NCBI GenBank assembly: GCA_964016885.1
Contig: OZ024761.1
Span: 1,736,001 to 1,800,000 of the forward strand
Source of the DNA: Eledone cirrhosa
Taxonomy: Eukaryota
Length of the DNA stretch: 64,000 bases
Direction: 5' to 3'
The translations under genes were made by a program, and so were the position numbers. This document shows, piece after piece, positions 16,433 through 57,720 of the stretch. Each line of letters opens with the position of its first letter. Position 1 is the stretch's first letter. A model generated the notes under the pieces. That model did no database searches and was not told the DNA's origin. It saw only the letters and a program-made list of their open reading frames with translations.

Positions 16433-18053
16433 ATATTTACCATGCGGTATTCTAATCCTATTGTATCTCTCTCAGTTATTTACCATGCGACCCTCAGTTC
16501 CTACCCCCCCCCCCCTCTCTATGCACTTCTTTAAGGCTTACTACCCTGTCTTTAACCTAATTCATTCAATCTGAAAATATTGAAGAGATAAGACACTTTC
16601 CCATTCTTCTCTGCTAAAATGTACCACTAGAGCTGATTCAAATTTTCCCAGCCAGCCATCCATCTAATCTACGAAGGTATTTTAGCCTACATATTGTCGT
16701 TAATATTATGATGTTCCCTGCTGTATTAGCGTTAAATCTTCCCTGCTGTATTAGCGATAAATTTTCGAGGGTTTCTCTTAGTAGCTTTTTTCATGACGTT
16801 ATTATTGTTAATTTTACTGATGTAGTATTAACTTGGATATTTACCATGCGACCCTCAGTTCCTACCTCACAATTGTCGTTAATATTATGATGTTCCCTGC
16901 TGTATTAGCGTTAAATTTTCCCTGCTGTATTAGCGATAAATTTTCGAGGGTTTCTCTTAGTAGCTTTTTTCATGACGTTATTATTGTTAATTTTACTGAT
17001 GTAGTATTAACTTATTAACTTGGATATTTACCATGCGGTATTCTAATCCTATTGTATCTCTCTCAGTTATTTACCATGCGACCCTCAGTTCCTACCCCCC
17101 CCCCCCTCTCTATGCACTTCTTTAAGGCTTACTACCCTGTCTTTAACCTAATTCATTCAATCTGAAAATATTGAAGAGATAAGACACTTTCCCATTCTTC
17201 TCTGCTAAAATGTACCACTAGAGCTGATTCAAATTTTCCCAGCCAGCCATCCATCTAATCTACGAAGGTATTTTAGCCTACATATTGTCGTTAATATTAT
17301 GATGTTCCCTGCTGTATTAGCGTTAAATCTTCCCTGCTGTATTAGCGATAAATTTTCGAGGGTTTCTCTTAGAAGCTTTTTTCATGACGTTATTATTGTT
17401 AATTTTACTGATGTAGTATTAACTTGGATATTTACCATGCGACCCTCAGTTCCTACCTCACAATTGTCGTTAATATTATGATGTTCCCTGCTGTATTAGC
17501 GTTAAATTTTCCCTGCTGTATTAGCGATAAATTTTCGAGGGTTTCTCTTAGTAGCTTTTTTCATGACGTTATTATTGTTAATTTTACTGATGTAGTATTA
17601 ACTTATTAACTTGGATATTTACCATGCGGTATTCTAATCCTATTGTATCTCTCTCAGTTATTTACCATGCGACCCTCAGTTCCTACCCCCCCCCCCTCTC
17701 TATGCACTTCTTTAAGGCTTACTACCCTGTCTTTAACCTAATTCATTCAATCTGAAAATATTGAAGAGATAAGACACTTTCCCATTCTTCTCTGCTAAAA
17801 TGTACCACTAGAGCTGATTCAAATTTTCCCAGCCAGCCATCCATCTAATCTACGAAGGTATTTTAGCCTACATATTGTCGTTAATATTATGATGTTCCCT
17901 GCTGTATTAGCGTTAAATCTTCCCTGCTGTATTAGCGATAAATTTTCGAGGGTTTCTCTTAGTAGCTTTTTTCATGACGTTATTATTGTTAATTTTACTG
18001 ATGTAGTATTAACTTGGATATTTACCATGCGACCCTCAGTTCCTACCTCACAA
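16433..18053. repeat. 591-bp tandem monomers (~2.7 copies), each with an internal ~180-bp duplication
   Basis: catgcggtattctaatcc at 16441, 17032, 17623; near-identical copies. Confidence 0.92.
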
Positions 18054-25360: not shown

Positions 25361-25543
25361 TGTGTGAAGTTGGACGGTTTGGTGTGAATTGTGAAGAAAC
25401 ATGTCACTGCAAGAATGTTACAAATTGTAACAGGATAAATGGACTTTGTGTTGGTGGTGGTGGTGGTGGTGGTGGTGGAGGTAGTAGTGGAGGTGATGGT
25501 GGTCAGTGTGAAGCTGGATTCATTGGGCCAGACTGTCAAGTAG
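25361..25543 (+). CDS. EGF-repeat receptor exon E10 with Gly-rich insert
   Basis: ttccag| ... |gtgagt; 183 bp (138+45); CEVGRFGVNCEETCHCKNVTNCNRINGLCVGGGGGGGGGGSSGGDGGQCEAGFIGPDCQV. Confidence 0.9.
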
Positions 25544-45000: not shown

Positions 45001-48000
45001 CAAATTGGAATATTTACCTCTTCCATCTTTTGAAGGAAAAATTCTCTGCGATATTTCTACTGGCTCACCCAGACCACTTGTTCCAGATTGCCATCAATGT
45101 ATCATTTTTGATGCACTTCATTCCTTGTCACTTCCCAGCATAGCTGCCACAGTGAAGCTTATTACGGCTCGATTTTTCTGGCCTAATATGCGTCGTTTAA
45201 TCACCGGTTGGGCACGTTCTTGTTTGAAGTGTCAGCGCTCTAAGATTTATCGGCATGTCCACGCTCCTCTTGGGAAATTCAGCCCGCCAGACGCACGTTT
45301 CCGTCATATTCACATGGATATTGTTGGTCCATGGCCCGTTAGTCGTGGGTTCACATACATATTGACTTGTATCGATCGTTTCTCTCGGTGGCCTGAAGCC
45401 ATACCCTTAGTGGACATAACAGCAGAATCCGTTGCCCTAGCTTTCATTTCCAATTGGATTGCTCGCTTTGCTGTTCCTACTAAAATAACTACGGATCGTG
45501 GACACCAATTTGAAGCTTCCTTATTTCGTGAAATATCACGACTCTTGGGTGCTCATCACATTCATATGACCAGCTATCATCCAGCCTCCAATGGAATGGT
45601 CAAGAGGTTTCATAGGCAGTTGAAAGCTGCACTTCGCGCTACTCCTGATCCGCAATGTTGGACCGAATTTTTGCCAATCGTGCTTCTTGGTTGTTGTTCT
45701 GCCATTAAGACAGATTTAGGTTTTTCTTCTGCTGAACTTCTTTATGGTACCACATTGTCTCTTCCTGGACAAATGTTAGCACCAGTGGATTCATCACATC
45801 TTGACCCAGCATCATATGTCACCAGGATTCATTCATATTTCTCGGATCTTCCACCAATGAACCCTCGTGACCAATCTATTTCTTCTGCTGTCCCATCGGA
45901 CATCTCTACATGGACACATTTTCATATGGAATGATTCCGTCAAGGGACCTCTTACGTCACCCTACAATGGACCTTTTTGTGTGCTTTCGTACACACCAAA
46001 ACACTTTACAGTGGCTGTCAATGGTTGAAAAGAGGTAATATCCGTTGACAGAGCAAAGAAGGCTTTCTCTGAAAGTCTCACATCATTGCCTGACATACCT
46101 CGCACATACACTCCGACACAAACACCTTCACCTCCACCGCAAACACCAAATACCACACAACCATATGTCACACGAAGTGGCAGGACAGTAATATGGCCAC
46201 GGAAACTCTCAAAAACAATATTCGTTTAACGCCTAGTAGCATTAACTATTTGACTTTGAAAAATTTTGAACGTATTTTCAGCACTATTTTCCTGGCTCCC
46301 TTGTACTGTTTTGAATTGTATTGTTCCAGTTGCATTTTTCTGCATGTTTATTTTCGTGATTTGCTTCTGTTACAAACCATTGTAATTTATGTACCTTTTG
46401 TTTTAATTGCTCCTTATTCTATGGCTCCTCGCTACAATGATCTTACGGTTATTATCAACCATCGTCTGGAGGGGAGACTTGTAGCGAATAGCGCCACCTT
46501 GCCCGGGGAGAAAAGACTAATTGGAGTTACTTCCCGTTGGATTCTAGAAGATTCCTTGAACTTCCAGTCTATAAGGATTATAAAGGAGGGAGAAAAGAGA
46601 CATCTTAGCTTATTTGGCGACCGGCTCTCAGACAGTTCACTCACGAGCGAGTTTGTTAACCTTATTATATCTGTACCGAATTTAATTAGTGGTTGGCCTG
46701 CAGTGGTGTTTACCTAAGTAAATAACCCTAAGACCAATTCACTTAAACAGTTTAGTGTGTGGTCTACCTGGACATTTACAGTTCAGTGTGTGGTCTACCT
46801 GGTCATTTACAGTCTAGTATGTGGTCTACCTGGTCATTTACAGTCCAGTGTGTGGTCTACCTGGTCATTTACAGTCCAGGGTGTGGTATACCTGGTCATT
46901 TACAGTCCAGTGTGTGGTCTACCCGGTCATTTACAGTCCAGGGTGTGGTATACCTGGTCATTTACAATCCAGGGTGTGGTATACCTGGTCATTTACAGTC
47001 CTTTGTGTAGTCTCCCTGGTCATTTACAGTCCAGTATGTGGTCTATCTGGTCATTTACAGTCCAGTATGTGGTCTACCTGGTCATTTACAGTCAAGTATG
47101 TGGTCTACCTGGTCAATTACAGTCCAGTGTGTGGTCTACATAGTCATTTACAGTCCAGTGTGTGGTCTACCTGGTCATTTACAGTCCTTTGTGTAGTCTC
47201 CCTGGTCATTTACAGTCCAGTATGTGGTCTATCTGGTCATTTACAGTCCAGTATGTGGTCTAACTGGGCATTTACAGTCAAGTATGTGGTCTACCTGGTC
47301 AATTACAGTCCAGTGTGTGGTCTACATAGTCATTTACAGTCCAGTGTGTGGTCTACCTGGTCATTTACAGTCCTTTGTGTAGTCTCCCTGGTCATTTACA
47401 GTCCAGTATGTGGTCTATCTGGTCATTTACAGTCCAGTATGTGGTCTACCTGGTCATTTACAGTCAAGTATGTGGTCTACCTGGTCAATTACAGTCCAGT
47501 GTGTGGTCTACATAGTCATTTACAGTCCAGTGTGTGGTCTACCTGGTCATTTACAGTCCTTTGTGTAGTCTCCCTGGTCATTTACAGTCCAGTATGTGGT
47601 CTATCTGGTCATTTACAGTCCAGTATGTGGTCTAACTGGGCATTTACAGTCCAGTGTGGTCTACCTGGTCAATTACAGTCCAGTGTGTGGTCAACCTGGT
47701 CATTTAGTCTAGTATGTGGTCTACCTGGTCATTTACAGTCCAGTATGTGGTCTAGCTGGTCATTTACAGTCCAGTGTGTGGTCTACCTGGTCATGTACAG
47801 TCCAGTATGTGGTCTACCTGGTAATTTACAGTCCAGTGTGTGGTCAACCTGGTCATTTACAGTCCAGTGTGTGGTCTACCTGGTTATTTACAGTTCAGTA
47901 TGTGGTCTACCTGCTTATTTACAGTCCAGTGTGTGGTTTACCTGGTTATTTACAGTCCAGTGTGTGGTCTACCTGGTCATTTACAGTCCTGTCTGTGGTC

Positions 48001-48960
48001 TACCTGGTACTTTACAGTCCAGTGTGTGGTCTACCTGATTATTTACAGTCCAGTGTTTTGTCTACCTGGTCATTTACAGTTCAGTGTGTGGTCTACCTGG
48101 TCGTTTACAGTCCAGTGTGTGGTCTCCCTGGTTATGTACAGTCCAGTGTGTGGTCTACCTGGTCATTTACAGGTGTATGGTCTACCTGGTCATTTACAGT
48201 CCAGTGTGTGTTCTACCTGGTCATTTACCGTACAGTGTGGTCTACCTGGTCATTTACAGTACAGTGTGCGGTCTACTTGGTCATTTATAGTCCAATGTGT
48301 GGTCTACCTGGTCATTTACAGTACAATGTGTGGTCTACCTGTTCATTTACAGTACAGTGTGTGGTCTTTCTGGTCATTTACAGCCCAGTGTGTGGTCTAC
48401 CTGGTCATTTACAGTACAGTGTGTGGTGTATGCTTGTCATCTTCAGTAGTGTGTGGTGTATGCTTGTCATCTTCAGTAGTGTGTGGTCTACCTGGTCATT
48501 TACAGTACAGTGTGTGGTCTACCTGGTCATTTACAGTACAGTGTGTGGTCTACCTGGTCATTTTCAGTACAGTGTGTTCTACCTGGTTATTTACAGTACA
48601 GTGTGTGGTCTACCTGGTTATTTGCAGTCCAGTGTGTGGTCTACCTTGTTATTTACAGTCCAGTCTGTGGTCTACCTGGTCATTTAACTTCCATTGTTTG
48701 GTCTACCTAGTCATTTACAGTCCAGTGTGAGGTCTTCCTGGTCATTTAGATTTCAGTGTGATCTACCTGGTTATTTACAGTACAGTGTGTGGTCTACCTG
48801 GTTATTTACAGTCCAGTCTGTCGTCTACCTGGTTATTTACAGTCCAGTTTGTGGTCTACCTGGTCATTTACAGTAGAGTGTGTGGTCTACCTGGCCATTT
48901 ACTGTACAGTGTGTGCTCTACCTGGTCATTTAGAAATTAGTGTGTGGTCTACCTGGTTAT
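42084..48960. repeat. 31-bp satellite (ggtctacctggtcatttacagtccagtgtgt), split by the LTR element
   Basis: ~4.5 units before and ~70 units after the insertion. Confidence 0.95.
42228..46746 (+). mobile_element. Decayed Ty3/Gypsy LTR retrotransposon
   Basis: LTRs 42228-42492 and 46480-46746 (start TGTAGCGA); TSD acag; PBS-like ggtgacccc (tRNA-Trp type); PPT ggaggggag; gag (LWFAQLDAYF), protease VDTGS, RT (MPFGL, YVDY), RNase H DAS, integrase; frameshifts and stops. Confidence 0.93.
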
Positions 48961-49149
48961 TCACATAGAACCAAGTGTGGAGGTGTGATGGGGTTTGGTA
49001 ACATAGAACCAGGGGTGGAGGTATGATAGGGTTTGATAACATTGGACCAGGCATGGTGGTGTGATGGGGTTTGGTAACATAGAACCAGCGGTGGAGGGTT
49101 TCCTGTTGTTTAGTAACAAATGTGTTAATGTTTGTTGTTTGCCCTACAG

Positions 49150-49293
49150 AGTGTCCAGTAGGGAAATTTGGCTCTCAGTGTCAGCAACAGTGCCACTGTG
49201 TCATCGATGAAGGATGTAACTATAAGAATGGCTCCTGTGCATCTGGATGTAAAGATAGTTACCAAGGAGATAGCTGTCAAGAAAAACAAACAA
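49150..49293 (+). CDS. EGF-repeat receptor exon E15 (membrane-proximal)
   Basis: ctacag| ... |gtgagg; 144 bp; CPVGKFGSQCQQQCHCVIDEGCNYKNGSCASGCKDSYQGDSCQEKQT. Confidence 0.88.
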
Positions 49294-52774: not shown

Positions 52775-52847
52775 ATTTATTGCTGCTGGTTGGAGTTCCT
52801 GTCATTTCCTTCTTCATTCTCCTACTTATTGGTATTCTTTGCTGCAA
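52775..52847 (+). CDS. Transmembrane exon E16
   Basis: cctcag| ... |gtatgt; phase 1-2; NLLLLVGVPVISFFILLLIGILCCK. Confidence 0.85.
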
Positions 52848-53781: not shown

Positions 53782-53912
53782 GATTGCTGCTGCCAAGAGA
53801 CGAAATTTCAACACTGAGATTGAGAAGATGTTCCCACTACCTCTATCAATACCTGTAGCCCCTACAGGACCTTCTCCTCTTCATATTCCTCTCCGGGCCA
53901 ACACAAGTAAAG
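53782..53912 (+). CDS. Juxtamembrane cytoplasmic exon E17 (basic, Pro-rich)
   Basis: cacag| ... |gtatgt; phase 2-1 fits neighbours; IAAAKRRNFNTEIEKMFPLPLSIPVAPTGPSPLHIPLRANTSK. Confidence 0.8.
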
Positions 53913-54802: not shown

Positions 54803-55125
54803 ATGACAATTATGAAGAATTTATCTGTGGAAGTCAGTCAAGCTGGACCTATGATGAGATGGAACTTGAGAAGTTGACACAGCCATCAGCTCTACCACCA
54901 TACCGTGACAGAGATACAGTAGAGAAACAGCGATGTGTGTTGATGGCTAAGGATGACAAACATGAGTATGAGGTGATGGCTAACCCTGATAAACAGGAAT
55001 ATGAGGTGATGGCTAAGGAAAATAAACCAGAATCTGAAGTGATGGCTAAGGAAGGTAAACAAGAGTATGAGGTGATGGCTAAGGAAGATAAACAAGAATA
55101 TGGGGTGATGACCAATGAGTCTCAG
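54803..55125 (+). CDS. Cytoplasmic exon E18 with tandem YxxM repeats
   Basis: caacag| ... |gtaagt; phase 1-0; DDNYEEF...TYDEM...EYEVM...EYEVM...ESEVM...EYEVM...EYGVM. Confidence 0.85.
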
Positions 55126-55277
55126 GTAAGTTGTTATTGTTGTTGTTTAACCCTAGGTCAGCCCTGGTCAAGCCAGCCTATGATCAGAAATAAGTCACTA
55201 TTTCATTGATCTTCATCTACCTCCTTGTGTAGTGTCATTGTTAGATAAATATAAACACTTTAAAATAAACGGTTTCA

Positions 55278-56070
55278 TATCATAGAACCAGGGGTGGGGG
55301 TGTTGTGGGTTTGGTTTGGTGTCATAGAACCAGGGGTGGGGATGTTGTCTGGTTTGGTTTGGTGTCATAGAATCAGGGGTAGGGATGTTGTGTGGTGGTT
55401 TGGTGTCATAGAACCAGGGGTGGGATGTTGTATGGTTTGGTTTGGTGTCATAGAATCAGGGGTAGGGATGTTGTGTGGTGGTTTGGTGTCATAGAACCAG
55501 GGGTGGGATGTTGTATGGTTTGGTGTCATAGAACCAGGGGTGGGGGTGTCATGTGGTTTGGAGTCATAGAACCAGGGGTGGGGGTGTCATGTAATTTGAT
55601 GTCATAGAACCAGGGGAGGGGTGTGGTGTGGTGTCATAGAACCAGGGGTGGGGGTGTTGTGTAGTGGCTTGGTATCATAGAACCAGGGGTGGGGGTGTTG
55701 TGTGGTTTGGTGTCATAGAACCAGGGGCTGGGGTGGGGTGGTTTGGTATCATAGAACCAGGGGTGTTGTGTGGTGGTTTGGTATCATAGAACCAGGGGTG
55801 GGGGTGTTGTGTGGTTTGGTGTCATAGAACCAGGGGTGGGGGTGTGGTGTGGTTTGGTGTCATAGAAATAGAGGTGGGGGTGTTGTGTGGTTTGGTGTCA
55901 TAGAACCAGAGGTGGGGGTGTTGTGTGGTTTGGTTTAGTGTCATAGAATCAGGGGTGGGGGTGTTGTGTGGTTTGGTGTCATAGAACCAGGGGTGGGGGT
56001 GTTGTGTGGTTTGGTAACATAGAACCAGGGGTGGGGTGTCGTGTGGTTTGGTGTCATAGAACCAGGGTTG
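55278..56070. repeat. G-rich ~35-40-bp minisatellite (catagaaccaggggtgggggtgttgtgtggtttggtgt); related units at 48965-49095
   Basis: Direct reading. Confidence 0.9.
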
Positions 56071-56461
56071 GTTTCAGGTGGCTTGGTGTCCACCAGACTA
56101 CGAGAGAGATGAGATGAGAGATTTTTTGGGGAGATGAAAAAAACTAAACAGAGGTACCTGCAAGGATTTGAAAGCCAGCATCTTAAAAACCTTTCAAAAG
56201 ACGGCAAATGATGACCAGGGTCAGCTTAGAGTAATAGTTAAGGCACTTGACCAGCAAGCAAGAGGTAGAGGTTTCAATTCTTATCAGGTGCCACTCTCCA
56301 CTTTTTTCCATCTCTAGGATTACTTTACCTGACTTTTTAAACTAATATTTATAGTGATCAACTATTATTTTAATTGTTTATGTTAGGAGGACTACATTTC
56401 TCATTTTCTAAATGCTTCTTAAGTCAACCTAATGTTTATATGTTTATATATGTATTTTTAG

Positions 56462-56563
56462 TGTCTGTTAAACATACGACCAGTAGCAGCAGAAGACCTA
56501 TCTACCGTGGCTAACAACACAAATGGTTGCTATGAAAATGAAGTGACTTTAGAAGAAAACTAA
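56462..56563 (+). CDS. Last coding exon E19
   Basis: ttttag|, phase 0; CLLNIRPVAAEDLSTVANNTNGCYENEVTLEEN*; donor-like gtaagt at 56580. Confidence 0.7.
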   Translation, partial: CLLNIRPVAAEDLSTVANNTNGCYENEVTLEEN

Positions 56564-56889: not shown

Positions 56890-57720
56890 ATATATAAGTA
56901 TAGCTTCTAACCAGAGTTATGTTTCTAGTACAGATTCAATGGTTGGGGTGTTTACTTCGGCAGTCTATGGTAACTTTAATATTCTGGTGGATGGAGTTAG
57001 CTATTTGCTGGATGCTTTCCATGGTGTTCTCTAATTCCTGACTGTTCTCCTGTGGGGATATTTTTACTACAATGTTTATTATGTCATCTAAGTAGTGGGA
57101 GTACATAGTCAGGGTTATAAAATTCTCATCTAATTCTTCCTTAAGTCTTCTGTCCCACCATACCATAAAGAGGTTAGCTTTGTCACCTGCAATTCTAATG
57201 CCAATGGCTTCCCCCTCCACTTGGGCATATGTTTTGCCATTAAACTTGAACATATGTTCCTTAAGGGTTATACTGGCCCCACCACATATGCAATCATTTT
57301 CTTTAATTCATCATGGTTTCTGGGGGTCCGAGTGGCTCTGGTCCACTCGCTCCATCTTTCTGTGTGGGTCTTCTTGGTCATTGAGGTAATGGTAGGTGGT
57401 CTGCCTCTCTCTGACTTTGTGGGGCAAAGTCTTCTGAGGTCGTGTGTGTCTAAATAATCCTTATTGTGTGTGAGTTTAAGTAGGAGTCCCATTCACTGGT
57501 ATCAATCCCCACGGAATTCCACATCGCTCTCGCTGATCATTTCTATGCATTTTTCCACAGCAAAATCAACGTCGATGGATGGATATAATGACACTACATC
57601 CATGCTACCTATTGTACAGCCTGTCAGGACCCCAAATAGATTCCATTTGCTGATTCTGCTGAGGAGGTCCTCCATGCTATCGCATACAATATCTGTTTCA
57701 ACACACGTTTTCAGAGAAGA
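56890..57720 (-). mobile_element. Penelope-like RT fragment related to the 9375 ORF
   Basis: SMDVVSLYPSI, FKFNGKTYAQVEGEAIG, YSHYLDD. Confidence 0.8.

Follow-up and report, generated by a model that had tools for sequence, protein, structure and literature searches.

The locus raises the question of whether a short tandem repeat, read in frame in the tail of a receptor, has generated a signalling site. The window (the whole stretch of DNA analysed, 64,000 nucleotides, C22:1736001–1800000 of the 3.0-Gb Eledone cirrhosa genome; coordinates without a contig prefix are window positions) carries a 33-bp repeat in frame in the tail of an intact receptor gene model, and we hold with about even confidence that this repeat is a multivalent PI3K docking site. 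If it is, it exemplifies how a short tandem repeat can give rise to a signalling site in nature and bears on how 'scavenger class F-like' (SCARF-like) receptors without a phosphatase signal, which can be tested with p85 and paired phosphopeptides; should the additional units prove inert, the array would be an ordinary coding minisatellite in a tail that evolves fast.

The 33-bp array

TRF identified a 33-bp repeat at 54941–55110 (5.2 copies, 82% matches, no indels, score 228) in which ATGGCT recurs at 54943, 54976, 55009, 55042 and 55075. Codon alignment resolves it into five in-frame units of 11 amino acids on the forward strand (54946–55110, with starts at 54946, 54979, 55012, 55045 and 55078) that end, in order, in YEVM, YEVM, SEVM, YEVM and YGVM. 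The sequence-only reading, which had listed the same five ATGGCT positions, had missed a degenerate sixth unit ahead of the five (54913–54945, forward strand), where 19–22 of 33 nt are the same as in the other units, the Met is retained and Cys stands at the Tyr position. The exon frame assigned in that reading is the sole forward frame free of stops across the array (0 compared with 16 and 7 in the other two), the lack of stops having a P of 0.26. A DNA pattern for the unit gave three matches inside the array and one elsewhere in the genome. In short-read contigs from three runs of one sample (possibly the source of the assembly), a single 309-nt piece covers 54859–55167 with no difference and no indel; these contigs cross the five units unbroken, which excludes an artefact of assembly. 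No second length allele was seen in this sample, the contigs of which drop rare variants. Pairwise divergence between units is 9–27% (mean 18%) and the array is therefore not a fresh, pure, unstable repeat; as this exceeds the divergence between the gene and its segmental copies (about 2.5% in the flanks), the array must be older than those copies. The proposal that output varies with repeat number is not supported, with one length in one sample and units too divergent for a fresh repeat. Use of GAG|GTGATG in each unit as an in-frame alternative donor, tuning motif number, was considered and rejected (score 1.7, lower than any of the gene's 28 distinct donors). Two minisatellites were noted in introns nearby, one of 38 bp and 20 copies at 55280–56071, with a 38-bp relative at 48963–49097, and one of 31 bp and 72 copies at 46747–48965.

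Tail motifs and proposed PI3K docking

The predicted tail of 185 residues is encoded by three exons on the forward strand. E17 (53782–53912, phase 2 to 1, single copy) carries a basic stop-transfer stretch and a proline-rich segment with two PxxP motifs, E18 (54803–55125, phase 1 to 0, AG acceptor) carries YEEF, YDEM and LPPY as well as the array, and the last coding exon, E19 (56462–56563, phase 0), carries a YEN motif and the stop. The LPPY and PxxP motifs are presumably WW and SH3 ligand motifs. There are eight tyrosines (48, 61, 78, 100, 111, 133, 144 and 176), those of the array forming two pairs 11 residues apart (100/111 and 133/144), and Glu directly precedes all four array tyrosines with more acidic residues upstream. 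Translation of the tail bore out the motifs reported earlier (YDEM, three YEVM, YGVM, SEVM, YEEF and YEN, with no NPxY), and at the eight tyrosines checked NPxY, YxxL/I and ITIM patterns were all absent. Five or more YxxM motifs occurred in none of 20,000 shuffles of the tail, which simply mirrors the repeat; with the array reduced to one unit two YxxM are left, a number matched in 114 of 20,000 shuffles. AlphaFold prediction of E18 from its single sequence gave no usable fold (mean pLDDT 49.6, pTM 0.16) and a Pfam scan of this exon returned sub-threshold HMG-type noise only.

The genome encodes a candidate partner. A p85 gene at C21:15.18–15.19 Mb has an iSH2 region and two intact SH2 domains, these being split over exons, and retains FLVR and FLIR together with matching KLIKI and HCKI strands, which we take by eye to be beta-D5. 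Several YxxM motifs in a disordered chain, with sites of the YExM type, are also a feature of the IRS proteins, which are cytosolic adaptors, and of CD19; to our knowledge neither the vertebrate IRS proteins nor CD19 are built from a short tandem repeat. According to the accessible text of PMC7337045, the preference of p85 SH2 domains for Met at +3 is set by the Ile/Cys of beta-D5, the optimal motif is pY-M-x-M, Gly substitution costs binding strongly, and tandem SH2 binding increases both affinity and specificity. The YGVM site is on these grounds likely to be weak. The spacing of the array pairs is that of the kinase insert of PDGFR-beta, where, in the part of 10.1101/704106 available, pY740 and pY751 are described as two PI3K-binding tyrosines 11 apart and the doubly phosphorylated peptide as activating PI3K at a concentration more than 100-fold below that needed with pY751 alone. 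PDGFR, however, carries its own kinase, residue +1 in the array is Glu or Gly, and no homology is implied; the match in spacing may be fortuitous, given that a tandem unit of whatever length imposes one. In the proposed mechanism, ligand would cluster the receptor, a Src-family kinase (assumed) would phosphorylate the acid-flanked tyrosines, and the 11-residue pairs would then probably engage both p85 SH2 domains on one receptor chain. The first pair (Tyr 100/111, YEVM/YEVM) would provide a full site and the second (Tyr 133/144, YEVM/YGVM) probably a weaker one, with the single YDEM, YEN and PxxP/LPPY motifs offering additional docking.

A less probable but still substantial alternative is that the array is a tolerated expansion: slippage or unequal crossover would have multiplied a single ancestral YxxM-bearing stretch within a disordered tail, with one or two sites being enough for function and the extras drifting. 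Selection within the array is not significant. Relative to their consensus, units 1–5 carry 11 replacement and five silent changes (P 0.09–0.32 depending on transition bias), and Tyr and Met codons have changed once compared with 2.1–2.3 expected (P 0.30–0.34, a comparison of low power); including the sixth unit leaves the unit-conservation statistics the same. Of the earlier PI3K interpretation, the multiplied YxxM motifs are upheld, and the genome does encode an intact p85; the expectation that Tyr and Met would be conserved more strongly than other positions of the repeat is not borne out. Drift would also fit the loss of Tyr from two of the six units and the Gly at +1 in one, the abundance of minisatellites (136 TRF rows in the 64-kb window) and the expansion of poly-Gly in another exon (25361–25543), where a GTG repeat has inserted about 15 residues in frame between cysteines. 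Weighing weakly against it, silent changes are above expectation at every setting (5 compared with 2.5–3.8), all six units retain Met and the Lys of unit position 5, and there are no frameshifts across the 9–27% divergence.

We regard as improbable a second alternative, that the pairs act in the manner of an ITAM and recruit a tandem-SH2 kinase of the Syk/Shark type for engulfment, as in Draper and MEGF10. The 7-residue gap within each pair lies inside the ITAM range of 6–12 given in the available portions of PMC6219719 and PMC9731471, and a unit without Tyr separates the two pairs; yet residue +3 is Met at every site, the tail is free of YxxL/I and NPxY, PEAR1 signalling through YxxM is reported to be Syk-independent in the text available for PMC12557594, and a higher-order duplication of three units, which we rejected as a candidate, is not supported by unit similarities.

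The gene as a whole

The gene model extends over about 130 kb and predicts a protein of about 2,985 amino acids with 55 EGF-pair exons, an F-type-lectin-like domain and one membrane helix, so that the EGF-repeat receptor recognised earlier is an intact single-pass gene model larger than first described. In the window, all on the forward strand, are 14 EGF-pair exons between 2158 and 42013 (starts at 2158, 6367, 8440, 11618, 12897, 14264, 15153, 23105, 24413, 25361, 34897, 39646, 40920 and 41876), all of phase 1-1 and with eight cysteines; a last EGF-pair exon ahead of the membrane (49150–49293, Pfam EGF_STAB1-2 E 0.003, under cut-off); and a transmembrane exon found by hydrophobicity scan (52775–52847, phase 1 to 2, single copy). 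Another 40 EGF-pair exons, 38 found by pattern and two divergent, lie upstream of the window, in a region (C22:1662610–1735030) that also includes the lectin-like exons and the signal-peptide candidate. All 53 pattern-found EGF-pair exons have an AG acceptor, a phase-1 donor, eight Cys and no stop. Pfam scans of three window EGF exons gave EGF_laminin at cut-off in one and EGF_STAB1-2 under cut-off in all three. Between C22:1694684 and C22:1724848 there are about 26 near-identical EGF-pair exons, many of them 0.4–0.7 kb apart, a recent exon-plus-intron amplification in the ectodomain of which the copy read on C20 has far fewer. An intronic tandem duplication of about 591 bp was noted at 16618–17950.

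The head of the gene lies upstream of the window. The lectin-like domain occupies two exons, one of which (C22:1677574) matches PDB FBP32 (E 2.5e-8) and a fucolectin-related sequence (E 1e-6), with Pfam PF22633 at E 1.2e-4, under cut-off; the other had no Pfam match. The canonical fucose-binding F-type lectin motif is His-x26-Arg-x-Asp-x4-Arg, and here, counting by eye, the His is kept with Asn/Ile at the Arg/Asp positions, so the sugar-binding motif is absent. A candidate signal-peptide exon with a phase-1 donor (C22:1662610, with the first EGF exon 1.4 kb further on) was picked from four candidates by hydrophobicity. EMI was not matched in the five head exons scanned, which include one lectin-like exon and an unassigned 132-nt exon at C22:1666600.

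At the 3′ end, the phases of the transmembrane exon (1-2), E17 (2-1), E18 (1-0) and E19 (0) join in frame. As E18 runs from phase 1 to phase 0 it cannot be skipped in frame and is needed to connect E17 with E19. Poly(A)-type hexamers follow E19 at 57239 and 57971. The gene looks alive, to judge from the intact EGF-pair exons and the in-frame join from the transmembrane exon to E19. That the gene or tail is not expressed as modelled (a silent locus or another 3′ end), leaving the motifs without effect, is improbable: the splice model comes from DNA signals alone and many genomic relatives are broken copies, but reading frame and phase are maintained over at least 59 exons, the donor of E18 (CAG|GTAAGT) is a perfect consensus and scores highest of the 28 distinct donors in the gene, and no phase-0 last exon better than E19 turned up as far as 64000. 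The three sequence runs that contain E18, all from one sample, include none recorded as RNA.

Kinship and genomic relatives

By its predicted architecture the gene is a molluscan SCARF-like receptor of subgroup 1B and not a CED-1, Draper or PEAR1, with which the earlier reading had compared it. It has a galactose-binding/fucolectin-like domain, EGF/Tie2-like repeats, a single transmembrane helix and no phosphatase. Together with a phosphatase-bearing sibling on C2 it matches Biomphalaria SCARF-like subgroups 1B and 1C as they appear in the accessible text of PMC13712769. In common with subgroup 1B it has a signal peptide (here a candidate), a lectin-like domain, EGF-type repeats, one transmembrane helix and a non-catalytic tail; unlike subgroup 1B it has 55 EGF-pair exons and a tail of 185 amino acids with five YxxM, four of them from a tandem repeat. 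Most SCARF-like tails are described in the same text as small and without signatures, and lectin-EGF SCARF-like receptors are placed there in snail loci for schistosome resistance; an immune or recognition role may be envisaged for the present gene too. The available portions of PMC12557594, PMC9731471 and PMC4055271 describe PEAR1/Jedi-1/MEGF12 as likewise single-pass EGF-repeat receptors with YxxM in the tail, PEAR1 signalling to PI3K. In PEAR1, however, a single YxxM is present and PI3K bridges two cross-linked receptors, independently of Syk (PMC12557594 and PMC9731471, same portions); PEAR1 also has NPxY, whereas the tail described here has none, carries paired YxxM on one chain and belongs to a protein with a lectin-like tip. 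A long EGF-type ectodomain and a Tyr-rich non-catalytic tail are shared with CED-1/Draper/MEGF10 (PMC6219719 and PMC8092387, as far as their available text goes), but NPxY, a YxxL/I ITAM and an EMI recognised among the head exons are missing here; the accessible part of PMC6219719 reports that the Draper tail did not bind p85 nSH2.

The proposal of a lineage-specific tail agrees with the searches, in which no homologue was detected; absence is weak evidence here because the full protein would exceed their limit of 2,000 amino acids. With the tail as query, phmmer against 1.84 billion representatives gave three weak matches (E 2e-4 to 7.5e-4) to unrelated repeat proteins, and a word search of proteins of 189–2000 amino acids gave none among 182 candidates, so that no orthologous tail was found for conservation testing. 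The last EGF exon yielded no candidate, and an upstream EGF exon seven amphioxus proteins only. The literature found on octopus multi-EGF proteins, molluscan MEGF and YxxM with repeat or cephalopod describes no such tail among the matches listed (including the available text of PMC8092387, PMC4055271 and PMC8878817; most subscription journals fall outside the coverage).

Within the genome, amplification has affected the front part of the gene and not its end. The lectin exon has at least 26 copies at 95–99% identity on C16, C20, C23 and C27, two of them with stops, and 12 further relatives at 30–42% (39 matches among 50 candidates). The amplified segment, C22:1669018–1745126, comprises the lectin and about 40 EGF-pair exons, with copies on C16, C19, C20, C23 and C27, those on C20 being in tandem with a period of about 105–130 kb. 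The two copy regions read (C19 and C20) are without transmembrane and tail exons, homology stopping at 8.8–9.1 kb of the window and giving way to shared non-gene DNA; some copies have lost cysteines, and on C20 the single copy start that was read lies downstream of the exon for the candidate signal peptide. In five exons common to the gene and both copy regions there are five amino-acid differences, every one confined to a single copy, a pattern consistent with constraint at this locus (the totals leave out the C20 row for exon 1714184, a mis-paired paralogue at 79% identity). Between the copies on C20 (4.47–4.51 Mb, L024–L035) there are LTR-type and LINE pieces, C2H2 zinc-finger fragments and a PIF1-helicase-like piece, presumably Helitron-type, and at least 13 kb of this DNA is in common with the C19 copy.

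The transmembrane exon and the three tail exons (E17, E18 and E19) each occur once, except that the same contig carries two isolated pieces of about 200 bp. One, at C22:10.45 Mb (L002:1430–1626), 8.7 Mb from the gene, is 93% identical to the part of E18 before the array and ends in a stop, with no EGF exon within −70/+30 kb; the other (C22:13122705–13122940, L118), 11.3 Mb from the gene, corresponds to part of E19 and has one stop. Both carry flanking intron. Conservation of the YEN end of E19 relative to this orphan copy (0 of 39 nt changed) was discarded as a signal at P 0.12 once scan-corrected.

The sibling on C2 (257.5–257.64 Mb) has lectin, EGF, transmembrane and tyrosine-phosphatase exons on one strand. 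The present gene has no PF00102 match, out of 72, closer than 12 Mb on C22, and E19 ends in a stop. On C17 there is a compact relative that shares the order of the head exons and the phases of the tail exons, and in the traced tail parts of the non-phosphatase siblings on C10, C2 and C17 (two transmembrane exons and one C17 tail exon) there is no tyrosine array. We advance as a doubtful speculation that the family forms a three-part switch of phosphatase-tailed members, tail-less copies and a giant kinase-less activating member; the last would bear a double PI3K dock of the PDGFR kind that arose out of a tandem repeat, would require no cross-linking of two tails and might have its output tuned between lineages by unit number. 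Large clusters of related EGF-pair exons with no phosphatase matches were also seen at C10:25.8–27.3 Mb (transmembrane exon at C10:27334958) and C2:310–315 Mb, and intronless tyrosine-phosphatase domains in open frames of 400–1,250 amino acids at C22:17643413, at C14:9.15–9.16 Mb (three in tandem) and at C10:12.09 Mb.
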